A DNA stretch of 64,000 nucleotides from Vulcanimicrobiota bacterium (GTDB lineage: Bacteria; Vulcanimicrobiota; Vulcanimicrobiia; Vulcanimicrobiales; Vulcanimicrobiaceae), in the NCBI GenBank assembly GCA_963820825.1, contig CAWGBN010000001.1, forward strand, positions 15,946 to 79,945, written 5' to 3'. Below the pieces are notes generated by a model. That model was not told the DNA's origin. It worked only from the letters and a program-made list of their open reading frames with translations, and ran no database searches. The translations under genes were made by a program, and so were the position numbers. Below, in pieces: positions 47,578 to 55,168 of this stretch. The stretch's first letter is position 1. Every line of letters starts with the position of its first letter.

Positions 47578-47609
47578 ACGGATCCAGGCGTATTGCTCGC
47601 ATGAACCGC
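47578..47609 (-). promoter_or_regulatory. Candidate cis-regulatory RNA hairpin in the rplC leader
   Basis: GCGGTTCATGCG-AGCAATA-CGCCTGGATCCGT; 14 nt identical to the tuf leader. Confidence 0.6.
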
Positions 47610-47618
47610 AACCCCGGG

Positions 47619-47647
47619 AGTTTACCAGGACGGCTCAACGAGGTCAA
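47619..47647 (-). promoter_or_regulatory. Putative sigma70 promoter of the rplC operon
   Basis: TTGACC-17 bp-TAAACT with extended TG. Confidence 0.8.
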
Positions 47648-47690
47648 GGCTCGCATTGCCGCGAGAACAAAAGCCCGCTGCATGTACGGT

Positions 47691-49550
47691 ATGCGCGCGA
47701 CGTTACGGTGGTTATCGGTGATCCCGGCCCTCGTCCTCGCGTTGAGCGGCGGCAGCGCCGCGGCGGCACCAACCTCGACGAAGACGCTCCTCGAATCCCT
47801 GCGCCGGGCAATGCTCTCCTCGCAACCCGCCGCCTCGATCGTCTCGCTCCACAGCGTCGGAAGCGTCGAGATCCTGGGACTTCGGGGCCGCGCGCAGGAG
47901 TGGGACGATCTGACGGGCGTCCGCTTTACGACCGCGCAGAGCGGCGGTGCGCTCAGCGGAGCCTCAGGGTGGGACGGCAAGGTCGCGTGGAGTCAGGATT
48001 ATGCCGGGCTGGTCACCATCGACGCCGGCGCGTCAGGGCGGCTCCAAGCAGTCGACCAGGCCTACTTGGCGACGCTGCGTTATCTGCGCCCGGACGCGGG
48101 AGGCGCAATGGTCATCTATGCGGGCACTCGGGACGACGGCGGTAAGAGCTACGACGTGCTCGCGGTCACCCCGCCGCGCGGCAGCGAGATCGATCTTTGG
48201 CTCGATCCCCGCACGCATTTGATCGCCCGCGAGACCGCGACCATCGGAACGGTCTCCTCGACGACGACCCTTTCGGCGTATCGGCGCGTCGACGGTATCC
48301 TCTATCCGTTCGATAGCAGCACGCAGCTGTCTAACGGAAACGCGTTCTCGGAGCGCGTGAACTCACTGGAGGTCAACACCGACGTCGCCGAGCGCATGCG
48401 GGTGCCGGGCCAAAGCGTACACGATGCCGCGATCGCCGGCACCGGCTCGACGACGGTTCCCTTGCAGATCGTCAACAATCACGTCTACGTCAGCGGGATG
48501 CTCGATGGAGAGGGTCCGTACACATTCGTGCTCGATAGCGGCGGCGATTACATCATCACGCCAGAGGTCGCCGCGGCACTGCACGCGACCAGCGAGGGCG
48601 GCGTGCAGCTCGAGGGGGCCGGAAGCTCGACCGAGGGCGCCGCCTTCGCTCATCTTAAATCGATCGAAGTCGGCAGCGCGACGGTTCGCAACCAATACAC
48701 GCTGGTCTTACCGATTGCCACCGGCTTCGGGGTTGCCGAGGGTGTGAGGATCGACGGAATGCTCGGCTATCAATTCTTGGCGCGCTTCCTGACGACGATC
48801 GATTATGCCAACGCAAAGCTCACCCTTGCGATGCCCGGCCTCGCGCCGGCCACGGAGCCCGGTTCGGCGGCAATTCCCTTTTACATAGACGGGCGCATCC
48901 CGCGAATTGCGATCGGCGTCGACGGCGTCACGACCTCGGCCGAGGTGGATACCGGAAATCGCGCCGGCCTGGAACTCTCCGCGCCGTTCTTAGCCGCCCA
49001 TGCGGCGATCGCCGCACTGGCGAGAACGGCGCCCGGCGTCGCCGGCTTCGGCGTCGGCGGCCCCGTCGTCGCGCGCCTCGGACGTATCCCGTCCTTGCAA
49101 ATCGGTCCCTACGCAATCGCGAACAGCGTCGCATCGTTCGGCTACCAAAACGCCGGCGTCTTCGGCGATCCGTTCAATCCCGCCAACGTCGGCGGCGCGA
49201 TTTGGCGCCGTTTCGACCTAACCTTCGATTACGCGCACCAGCAGCTGCTGCTCGCGCGAAATGCCGCGTTCAACGAACCGTTCAGCTACGATCGCTCGGG
49301 CCTCTTCCTCATCGACTCGGACGGCGCGTATACGGTTCTCGACGTTCTTCCCGGCTCTCCCGCGGCCGCGGCCGGAGTGGCCAAAGGCGACGTCCTTCTC
49401 GCGATCAACGGCGCGCCGGCCTCCGCCCAATCGCTCGCCGCACTGCGAACGTTGCTCTCCGGCGCCGCGGGAAGCCTGGTTCGCATCCACCTTCGCGGGC
49501 CGGCCGGCCACGAACGCGACGCGACTCTGAAGCTCGCCGACTACATCTAG
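47691..49550 (+). CDS. Secreted twin aspartyl-protease-domain protein with C-terminal PDZ domain
   Basis: Signal peptide; FVLDSGG, IDGMLG, VDTGN; VLPGSPAAAAGVAKGDVLLAING (PDZ). Confidence 0.88.
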   Translation: MRATLRWLSVIPALVLALSGGSAAAAPTSTKTLLESLRRAMLSSQPAASIVSLHSVGSVEILGLRGRAQEWDDLTGVRFTTAQSGGALSGASGWDGKVAWSQDYAGLVTIDAGASGRLQAVDQAYLATLRYLRPDAGGAMVIYAGTRDDGGKSYDVLAVTPPRGSEIDLWLDPRTHLIARETATIGTVSSTTTLSAYRRVDGILYPFDSSTQLSNGNAFSERVNSLEVNTDVAERMRVPGQSVHDAAIAGTGSTTVPLQIVNNHVYVSGMLDGEGPYTFVLDSGGDYIITPEVAAALHATSEGGVQLEGAGSSTEGAAFAHLKSIEVGSATVRNQYTLVLPIATGFGVAEGVRIDGMLGYQFLARFLTTIDYANAKLTLAMPGLAPATEPGSAAIPFYIDGRIPRIAIGVDGVTTSAEVDTGNRAGLELSAPFLAAHAAIAALARTAPGVAGFGVGGPVVARLGRIPSLQIGPYAIANSVASFGYQNAGVFGDPFNPANVGGAIWRRFDLTFDYAHQQLLLARNAAFNEPFSYDRSGLFLIDSDGAYTVLDVLPGSPAAAAGVAKGDVLLAINGAPASAQSLAALRTLLSGAAGSLVRIHLRGPAGHERDATLKLADYI

Positions 49551-49554
49551 GCGG

Positions 49555-53560: not shown

Positions 53561-53583
53561 CTGGTATCTCCTACCGCGCAGCG

Positions 53584-53892
53584 TTAAGCTTTGAGTTCGA
53601 TGTCGACGCCGGCCGGTAGATCGAGGTGCATGAGCGCGTCCATCGTCTTGGGCGAAGCCTGCAGAATGTCGATCAAGCGCTTGTGCGTGCGCATCTCGAA
53701 GTGCTCGCGCGACTTTTTGTCGTTATTCGTGGAGCGCTGCACGCAGAACCGATTGATCTCGGTCGGCAGGGGGACCGGTCCGCTAACGAACGCACCCGTT
53801 CGCTTCGCCGTTTCGACGATGCGTTCGGCCGATTGGTCGAGGACCTTGTGATCGTACGCCTTCAAGCGTATCCGGATCATCTGCTTCGCCAT
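53584..53892 (-). CDS. rpsJ: 30S ribosomal protein S10
   Basis: [33 protein letters not shown]. Confidence 0.99.
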
Positions 53893-53908
53893 GTGGTTTG
53901 TGCTATCG

Positions 53909-55108
53909 CTATTCCGCGACGGACGTGACGACGCCCGCCCCGACGGTCCGGCCGCCCTCGCGAATCGCGAAGCGAAGACCTTCCTCACAGGCGATCGGCG
54001 TAATCAGCTCGACGTCCATCTGGACGTTGTCGCCGGGCATGACCATCTCGACGCCCTCGGGCAACTTGATGGTGCCGGTCACGTCGGTGGTGCGGAAGTA
54101 AAACTGCGGCCGGTAGTTGCCGAAGAACGGCGTGTGCCGCCCGCCCTCTTCCTTTGAAAGCACGTACACCTCGGCCTTGAACTTCTTGTGCGGCTTGACC
54201 GAGCCGGGCTTGGCGAGTACTTGGCCGCGCTCGATCTCGTTGCGGTCGATGCCGCGCAGCAGCACGCCGATGTTGTCACCGGCGATACCCGAATCGAGCA
54301 GCTTGCGGAACATCTCGATACCCGTCACGACGGTCTTCTTGGTTTCGTCCTTCAGACCGACGATCTCGACCTCTTCACCGACTTTGACTTGACCGCGCTC
54401 GACGCGTCCCGTTCCGACCGTGCCGCGGCCGGTGATCGTGAAGACGTCCTCGACCGGCATCAGGAACGGCTTGTCGACCTGACGCTCCGGCTCGGGGATG
54501 TAGTCGTCGACGGTGTCCATCAGCTTGAAGATCGGATCGGCATCGGGGTCGCCGCGTTTGCCGCTGGAATTGAGCGCCTTGAGCGCCGAGCCTCGAATGA
54601 TCGGGGTATCGTCGCCCGGGAACTCGTACTGGCTGAGCAGTTCGCGGATCTCCATCTCGACGAGCTCGAGGAGCTCCTCGTCGTCGACCATGTCCACCTT
54701 ATTGAGGAAGACGATGATCCGCGGAACGCCGACCTGGCGCATCAGCAGAATGTGCTCGCGCGTCTGCGGCATGGGACCGTCCGAAGCGGCAACGACGAGA
54801 ATCGCGCCGTCCATCTGGGCAGCGCCGGTGATCATGTTCTTGATGTAGTCCGCATGACCCGGGCAATCGACGTGGGCGTAATGGCGTTTCGGCGTCTCGT
54901 ACTCCTGATGGGAGATGGCGATCGTGATGCCCCGCTCTTTCTCCTCAGGCGCGTTGTCGATTTGGTCGACGCCGACTCTCTGCGCCAAGCCCTCGGTCGA
55001 AAGGCAGTGCATGATCGCCGCGGTCAAGGTCGTCTTGCCGTGGTCCACGTGCCCCGTCGTGCCGATGTTGACGTGCGGCTTTTTACGCTCAAACTTTTGT
55101 TTAGCCAT
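53909..55108 (-). CDS. tuf: Elongation factor Tu
   Basis: [35 protein letters not shown]. Confidence 0.99.
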
Positions 55109-55139
55109 CAGGTTCCTCTCAAGGTGCTAACGTAAGTCC

Positions 55140-55168
55140 ACGGATCCAGGCGTTCTTCGCGGCTCCGC
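55140..55168 (-). promoter_or_regulatory. Candidate cis-regulatory RNA hairpin in the tuf-rpsJ leader
   Basis: GCGGAGCCGCG-AAGAA-CGCCTGGATCCGT; 14 nt identical to the rplC leader. Confidence 0.6.

Follow-up and report, generated by a model that had tools for sequence, protein, structure and literature searches.

A conserved sequence motif in the rplC and tuf-rpsJ leaders of Baltobacteraceae, the core of a candidate ribosomal-protein leader RNA

Bacteria are known to match the supply of ribosomal proteins to rRNA mainly through ribosomal-protein leaders, most of which are lineage-specific. The leader of the E. coli S10 operon carries an intrinsic terminator hairpin with a U run, and the S8 site has as its core AAGU ... 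AUAC(U) with bulged UA. Candidate leaders from other lineages include an L4 leader of Archaeoglobi, located before rplC, rplD, rplW and rplB, and an S10 leader in Firmicutes/Clostridia (Eckert and Weinberg, 2020; PMC7247131). Here we describe a 14-mer, ACGCCTGGATCCGT, that occurs in the leaders of both halves of a split S10 operon, rplC and tuf-rpsJ, within a 64-kb stretch of contig CAWGBN010000001.1 (the window, by which we mean the whole stretch analysed). The genome belongs to Candidatus (Ca.) Eremiobacterota (Vulcanimicrobiota), family Baltobacteraceae, genus 'Ca. Cybelea'; its closest relatives are of the same family and mostly of that genus. The family consists of uncultured soil bacteria, and, to our knowledge, Eremiobacterota include no well-studied cultures. 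We propose with moderate confidence, on the strength of sequence comparison, that the 14-mer is the core of a new, lineage-specific, cis-acting leader RNA of the main ribosomal-protein cluster of Baltobacteraceae, and that this leader would repress translation.

A motif shared by the rplC and tuf-rpsJ leaders

Read on the minus strand, the 14-mer occupies positions 47591..47578 upstream of rplC and 55153..55140 upstream of tuf. A sequence-only reading of the window had placed it in the 5′ leaders of both units, each time between a predicted promoter and the ATG and about 30 nucleotides (nt) before the start, and had taken the S10 operon to be split; our analysis agrees on all of these points. 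The rpsJ gene follows tuf, rplC (47549..46914) lies ~6 kb past rpsJ behind unrelated genes, and the gap between the end of the motif and the ATG is 28 nt for rplC and 31 nt for tuf. Upstream of each copy is a sigma-70-like site, the only one called in the rplC region, where shuffles of each region averaged 0.0 such sites, and the predicted transcripts start at ~47612 (rplC) and ~55210 (tuf). Across 128 unique rplC leaders the motif ends a median of 30 nt from the start, and never closer than 8 nt; the median for tuf is 28 nt. The motif is 12 nt or less from the start in 9 of the 128 rplC leaders, and in several it runs straight into the ribosome-binding site (..GUGGAG.., then AUG; ..CGUGGAGAUCAGAUG).

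The motif is also specific to these two places. The earlier claim that the window holds only two exact copies is correct, and the genome-wide count is two as well, so that a dispersed repeat can be rejected. Allowing up to two mismatches, the window has three matches to ACGCCTGGATCCGT against 0.84 expected, a number reached by 2 of 100 shuffles. When the whole assembly (2,978,335 bases in 9 contigs, 85% complete) was searched with up to one mismatch, only the same two sites were returned, against none for the reversed control pattern. Both sites were likewise recovered with a profile built on 60 unique cores of 28 nt (E 1.9e-5 and 1e-4), with the next match at E 0.43. Four weak profile matches in the same genome (C2:90992, C5:232019, C6:629647 and C9:5841) are near-identical coding segments of insertion sequence (IS)-type transposases.

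Across 128 unique rplC and 32 unique tuf leaders, the flanks vary and the motif, 15 bases long with the consensus core ACGCC-W-GG-N-Y-CCGUG, is nearly invariant: A1, C2, G3, C4, G7, G8, G13 and U14 are conserved in 100% of both sets. C5 is present in 88% of rplC and 100% of tuf leaders, C11 in 92% and 97%, C12 in 86% and 100%, and G15 in 87% and 100%, the rplC copy of the genome under study having U at position 15. Position 6 is A or U only in both sets; in the rplC leaders position 9 is never U and position 10 is a pyrimidine in 90%. The GGATCC palindrome of the two copies in the window is incidental, since the central dinucleotide varies among leaders. We regard the motif first of all as a sequence-specific site. 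The variable positions 6, 9, 12 and 15 are spaced every third base, in a coding-like manner (ACG CCW GGN YCC GUG; 160 unique leaders). No conserved reading frame or start codon across the motif was found in the leader sequences listed, and a leader peptide was rejected because the motif does not stay in one frame with rplC and, in several genera, comes immediately after a stop codon, as read from the listed sequences.

Conservation upstream of orthologues was found for rplC across the family and for tuf within Cybelea. Within the genus, DNA matches to the tuf leader occur in 56 of 61 genomes and to the rplC region in 59 of 61, and the motif is present in 38/38 Cybelea tuf upstream regions and in all 35 rplC upstream regions retrieved. 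All 80 rplC upstream regions from the genome collection carry it, as do, with up to three mismatches, 39 of 40 rplC upstream regions from other genera of the family, the fortieth reading ACGCUAGGCACAGUU. As an exact 15-mer pattern the motif was found in 47 of the 50 Cybelea genomes scanned, frequently in a pair of same-strand copies a few kb apart (read from the listed places), in 88 of 165 genomes of the family, in none of three from the sister family within the order and in 8 of 32 from the sister family within the class; the reversed control of this pattern was found in 21 of 201 genomes. At the eight loci examined in the class-level sister family, no rplC or tuf lies nearby. A wider pattern, ACGCCWGGNYCCGTG, applied to a phylum sample, was found in 62 of 81 genomes of the family and, for families outside the class, in 7 of 57 genomes, most of which are large. 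Some of the tallies, among them that of the exact 15-mer pattern, include four genomes flagged as unpublished (G036, G190, G211 and G219), and no claim depends on any one of them. Additional exact matches in relatives lie inside long open reading frames (ORFs; six places) or away from rplC and tuf (L094-L101, L103, L105 and L108). One of the six is at a locus (L222, G133:C74:56400-59400) with two motif copies 136 nt apart upstream of rplC, one in the leader and the other just upstream of the promoter; the second copy may be a remnant of a local duplication.

The distribution of the motif tracks the split of the operon. In the class-level sister family, tuf, rpsJ and rplC are contiguous and have no leader (3/3 genomes). 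In the order-level sister family, rplC is already apart from rpsJ and has its own promoter and a leader with a variant motif, ACGCUAGGCUCCGUG or ACGCUAGGCUCCGUGGAC (2/2 genomes). In four other genera of Baltobacteraceae the fusA-tuf spacer is short and contains neither a promoter nor the motif (5/5 genomes). From these layouts it follows that the rplC leader arrived with the old split, and that the tuf leader is seen only in Cybelea among the genera examined.

Leader anatomy, pairing and genomic setting

What rplC and tuf have in common is the conserved 3′ end of a larger leader of ~75 nt. In its long form, which is found in most genera (80 sequences), the rplC leader has a fixed size of 78-84 nt, counted from GGUUG to a point 8 nt beyond the motif, and consists from 5′ to 3′ of the strand GGUUGYGGUCC, a GC-rich hairpin of variable sequence, a purine-rich linker and the motif. 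We take this form to be ancestral; it would begin at or close to the 5′ end of the transcript, and the rplC ribosome-binding site comes shortly after it. G2, U3 and U4 of the 5′ strand are invariant in these 80 leaders, and G5 is nearly so. All 80 form a single inner hairpin, in 78 distinct sequences, with a median of 12 pairs and a mean z of -4.2 against shuffles. This hairpin covaries: columns 19:43 read GC in 39 leaders, CG in 17, GU in 10 and AU in 4, and columns 20:42 read CG in 29, UG in 14, UA in 13 and GC in 12. RNAalifold returned no structure from the MAFFT alignment of the 80 long leaders, because the hairpin is misaligned in it. A further 27 rplC leaders are not of the long form, and 25 of these share a uniform 45-nt short form in which the 5′ strand and the motif are kept and the hairpin and linker are lost. 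The rplC leader in the window is of this kind and corresponds to the hairpin of the sequence-only reading.

The tuf leader is collinear with the long-form rplC leader from the -35 box to just past the motif, over ~113 nt. Among picks starting at the -35 box (5 of 8 for tuf and 8 of 10 for rplC), the cassettes measure 112-114 nt for tuf and 112-115 nt for rplC, and the two are near-identical around the -10 box, the discriminator and GGUUGUG. Because of this collinearity, equal length and near-identical text at the promoter and GGUUGUG, we read the tuf leader as a Cybelea-specific paralogous duplicate of the rplC promoter-leader cassette, of which the middle would have diverged while the motif remained fixed. 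The whole tuf leader in the window folds at -54.3 kcal/mol (z -2.43). Six Cybelea tuf loci (L023, L025, L026, L027, L029 and L058) carry additional GC-rich hairpins, 100-190 nt in all, that separate the motif from the tuf start codon; these resemble inserted repeat-like stem-loops and are in some cases followed by short U runs.

Whether the motif itself pairs is less clear. The sequence-only reading had made each copy the 3′ arm of a meaningful hairpin enclosed in an outer stem. The two hairpins do fold, at -17.9 and -15.4 kcal/mol, yet their z values against shuffles are only -1.48 and -0.27; the short-form helix shows no real covariation and the complementarity of the arms is like that of shuffled sequence, so this claim was not sustained. 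Its outer stems are missing in part of the relatives, as read from the listed sequences. Across 26 short-form leaders, 93.4% of cells in the helix pair, mostly through conservation; a single pair varies on both sides, and 183 of 500 shuffles equalled this result. A nested helix can be drawn in the 80 long-form leaders, joining the 5′ strand to the 3′ half of the motif. It pairs in 85.4% of cells, compared with 25-53% (maximum 52.8%) for a slid partner. This percentage was reached by only 6 of 500 shuffles and its covariation score by 3 of 500, although related sequences can beat shuffles in such a test without any structure. A pseudoknot (GUUGC:GCAAU plus GGUCC:GGNYC) did no better than shuffles and was rejected. 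From the weak covariation, the shuffle results and the failed shuffled-arm test, the motif helix is plausible but unproven.

The features of the two units are collected in Table 1. On the minus strand the order is fusA (58603-56507), tuf, rpsJ and a DUF5654 gene (53553-53242), and rplC is directly followed by rplD (46913-46242; Pfam). The ORF right after rpsJ is not rpsJ itself; it has hydrophobic stretches and appears membrane-like. Between it and rplC are a HIT gene, two chromate-transporter halves, an acyl-CoA dehydrogenase gene and an opposite-strand Asp-protease/PDZ gene. The content of the rpsJ-rplC gap varies, with DUF5654 in this genome and a different 168-residue ORF in the order-level sister family. 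The DUF5654 gene was rejected as a regulator, since it looks like a small membrane protein and the sister family has that different protein in its place. An NHL-repeat gene (55412-56470, plus strand) parts fusA from tuf here. Elsewhere in the genus, at loci that reach far enough upstream, fusA ends ~190-340 nt before tuf. The tight packing of the genes from rplC to secY, judged by ORF spacing, is of interest below, as this cluster encodes the candidate ligands.

Table 1. Coordinates of the leader elements and transcription units in the 64-kb window.
Feature	Position	Strand	Basis
Motif, rplC copy, ACGCCUGGAUCCGUU (15 nt; 14-mer = 47578-47591)	47577..47591	-	Sequence, conservation
Motif, tuf copy, ACGCCUGGAUCCGUG (15 nt; 14-mer = 55140-55153)	55139..55153	-	Sequence, conservation
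5′ strand of rplC leader, GGUUGCGGUUCA, at or next to predicted transcript start	47602..47613	-	Conservation
Strong 5′ hairpin of tuf leader (GC-rich stem, then UUUA); place matches hairpin P2 of long-form rplC leader	55178..55213	-	Folding, collinearity
Predicted rplC promoter, TTGACC-17-TAAACT, TG before -10 box	47619..47647	-	Sigma-70-like scan; place conserved in relatives
Predicted tuf promoter, TTGACA-18-TACTAT, TG before -10 box	55217..55246	-	Sigma-70-like scan; collinear with rplC promoter of other genera
Spacer with purine-rich ribosome-binding region (GAGAGAG), before rplC ATG at 47549	47550..47576	-	Sequence
rplC-rplD-rplW-rplB-rpsS-rplV-rpsC-rplP-rpmC-rpsQ, rplN-rplX-rplE...rpsH-rplF-rplR-rpsE...rplO-secY	36591..47549 (as far as followed)	-	Pfam, ORF spacing
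tuf (55108-53909) and rpsJ (53892-53584), unit behind second leader	53584..55108	-	Pfam

A proposed autogenous leader and its alternatives

An autogenous ribosomal-protein leader fits these observations best, because the motif lies near the start, is kept in two otherwise different leaders, is found nowhere else in the genome and arose with the split. In such a system, which we infer would act as RNA and through a bound protein, a ribosomal protein encoded in the rplC-to-secY cluster would bind the leader when in excess over rRNA and block access of the 30S subunit to the nearby ribosome-binding site, so that rplC would be repressed and the tightly packed genes downstream would follow by translational coupling. 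Precedent suggests uL4 as the candidate ligand, with uL3, uS8 and others also possible. The copying of the whole promoter-plus-leader cassette to a place before tuf-rpsJ in Cybelea would then have brought S10 and EF-Tu, which the old rpsJ/rplC split had detached, under the same control. The sequence-only reading had likewise proposed a leader that co-regulates the two halves of the operon. Its non-repeat nature, its conservation across the family, its presence in both leaders and the lack of an Rfam match are as expected of such a leader, whereas the specific hairpin offered for it found little support.

Several observations nevertheless weigh against this proposal. In 6 of 32 tuf and 12 of 128 rplC leaders, more than 40 nt and up to 189 nt separate the motif from the start, and direct occlusion of the ribosome-binding site is difficult to envisage in these; the 6 of 32 tuf leaders with a gap of 100-190 nt do not agree with simple occlusion. 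Since no gene is common to the two regulated units, any ligand would have to work in trans on one or the other. The motif helix is nearly without compensatory change, with one such pair in the short form and one in the long form (AU 33, GU 9, UA 5). The energy of the arm-motif duplex is no better than that with shuffled arms, at a mean z of -0.28 for tuf (n=31), -0.95 for short rplC leaders (n=25) and +0.08 for long ones (n=80). Finally, no sequence-level mimicry of the genome's own 23S, 16S or 5S rRNA was detected, the best similarities being non-significant or tied to the variable dinucleotide.

The alternative that survives best, which we consider possible but unlikely, is a constitutive leader in which the motif and the 5′ strand form a 5′-terminal structure that stabilizes the mRNA or sets translation efficiency, with no feedback ligand. 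Such a structure would have reached tuf through the duplication of the cassette, along with a strong promoter of the growth-rate type. The position of the 5′ strand at the predicted transcript start, its ability to pair with the motif, the copying of promoter and leader as one unit and the lack of detectable rRNA mimicry all agree with it. A stabilizing stem, however, needs pairing and not a particular sequence, yet conservation is 100% at eight positions of the motif across 160 unique leaders, and the partner strands differ among the short rplC, long rplC and tuf forms, and the predicted folds are no more stable than those of shuffles.

Returning to the autogenous leader, it is also conceivable that it represents a new class of protein-sensing RNA whose ligand is not known as a regulator (uL3, for instance), and that the cassette was copied to recapture S10, with EF-Tu coming newly under feedback, which would make Cybelea a natural example of regulon expansion; a bolder form of this idea would have the RNA sense a small molecule. 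We think this extended version rather improbable.

A more specific alternative makes uS8 the ligand, the rplC leader then being a copy of the S8 site in helix 21 of 16S rRNA. The rpsH gene is part of the same packed cluster, and many rplC leaders read (A)AGUUGC ... GCAAUAC, similar to the AAGU/AUAC core of the S8 site and to GGUAAGUC ... GGAUACUAC in the 16S rRNA of this genome; GUUGC ... GCAAUAC is present in most rplC leaders. On the other hand, the AA is not conserved, GUUG being preceded by GG here and in the majority of genera, 69% of tuf leaders lack the AUAC context (U occupies position -1 in 31%), the invariant CGCC-W-GG..CCGUG has no counterpart in helix 21 of the genome's own 16S rRNA, and the GUUGC/GCAAU helix is no better than shuffles. 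We accordingly hold uS8 mimicry to be very unlikely. A little further down our ranking, and likewise very unlikely, is a DNA operator, at which a transcription factor would block elongation or initiation at both promoters. Strong primary-sequence conservation with little evidence of pairing would suit an operator, as would the restriction of position 6 to A or U, which yields a symmetric CCWGG. The site as a whole, however, is not palindromic, is always oriented in the sense of the gene and lies ~20 to 60 nt downstream of the predicted start, at a distance that shifts by ~37 nt between the short (45 nt) and long (78-84 nt) forms, and the adjacent hairpin evolves under RNA constraints. Last, a small-molecule riboswitch linking the synthesis of ribosomal proteins and EF-Tu to nutritional state (through a nucleotide alarmone or GTP, for example) would suit the architecture of the leader, in which the 5′ and 3′ strands and the junction bases are conserved, the hairpin varies in sequence but not in size, and an expression platform adjoins the ribosome-binding site. 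It is nevertheless extremely unlikely, given that 25 leaders of the 45-nt short form keep the motif without the hairpin and linker, a loss that would be expected to destroy most ligand pockets, that the 5′ strand and linker are replaced in tuf leaders, and that no Rfam riboswitch matches.

If the proposed autogenous leader is real, it would add a new RNA family and would imply an evolutionary order in which the operon split created the need for a new rplC leader and a later duplication returned tuf-rpsJ to the same control. It would also present an unusual case of EF-Tu sharing a control element with ribosomal proteins, and would make testable the general question of how stoichiometry holds when ribosomal operons break up.

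Comparison with rRNA and known leader RNAs

A scan of the whole window against Rfam 15 gave no match at gathering score, and relaxing the cutoff to E 10 brought in only low scorers of unrelated families (FMN at 10.5 bits, mir-557, symR and similar); in this respect the earlier description of the leader as undescribed holds, as no Rfam family matches it.

Local alignments of the leaders to the genome's own 23S and 16S rRNA gave a best result reached by 4 of 200 shuffles, among 8 tests, and to 5S rRNA one reached by 3 of 500, among 5 tests, the latter match resting on the variable dinucleotide. Pairing of the motif with the 16S or 23S rRNA of this genome was rejected, since duplex energies are within the range of shuffles. 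The E. coli 23S segment CCUGAAACCGUGU, which is similar to the motif, was dropped as a target of mimicry because the 23S rRNA of this genome reads CAUGAAACCGCAUG. Another segment of this 23S rRNA, GGUUGUUCCGCCAGG, which we take to lie in helix 96, resembles the 5′ strand plus the start of the motif; the likeness is post hoc, and by estimate about four such 8-mer matches would be expected. A BoxA-type Nus site is unlikely, since the motif has only two copies in the genome and neither is in an rRNA leader.

The 23S rRNA gene of this genome, which is outside the window (C5:83753-87727; L092:1501-5475), is unusual in its length, at 3975 nt against a model of 2925 positions. Within it lies an ORF of 126 residues that encodes a LAGLIDADG_2 endonuclease domain (E 5.2e-13), and Rfam called no intron family. 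The sequence suggests that the insert is an intron or intervening sequence with a homing endonuclease.

Among known systems, the spc-operon S8 operator of E. coli is similar in that a leader precedes a long S10 plus spc cluster that includes rpsH, and some rplC leaders have a partial AAGU/AUAC-like context. It differs in that the S8 core is not consistently conserved in rplC leaders and is missing in tuf leaders, and the motif is without counterpart in helix 21 of the genome's own 16S rRNA. The L4-responsive S10 leader of E. coli and other gammaproteobacteria is closer, being located in the 5′ untranslated region of an operon encoding L3, L4, L23 and L2. The rplC leader has the same kind of placement, upstream of an L4-encoding operon (rplC and rplD by Pfam), and presumably the same kind of autogenous feedback. 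Unlike the E. coli-type leader, it precedes rplC and not rpsJ, and has a second copy before tuf-rpsJ. A search of the minus strand in 47400-47900 and 55000-55500 called no terminator-like site, the tuf 5′ hairpin being followed by UUUA only, and no covariance model of an E. coli-type S10 leader matched in the Rfam 15 scan, the presence of such a model in Rfam 15 being unchecked.

No ribosomal-protein leader for Eremiobacterota was met in the literature searched, a search not aimed at this phylum. The present RNA, its occurrence in this phylum and the duplication onto tuf-rpsJ are not described there, and the kind of element to which it would belong, a lineage-specific ribosomal-protein leader, is well known. 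The L4 and S10 candidates of Eckert and Weinberg (2020; PMC7247131) come from other lineages, neither was recovered by the Rfam scan of the window, and the sections of that paper that deal with them report no tuf duplication. They are nevertheless the nearest in kind to what we propose here, in that they too are lineage-specific, lie upstream of rplC, rplD, rplW, rplB and further genes, and have a ligand assigned by precedent only.

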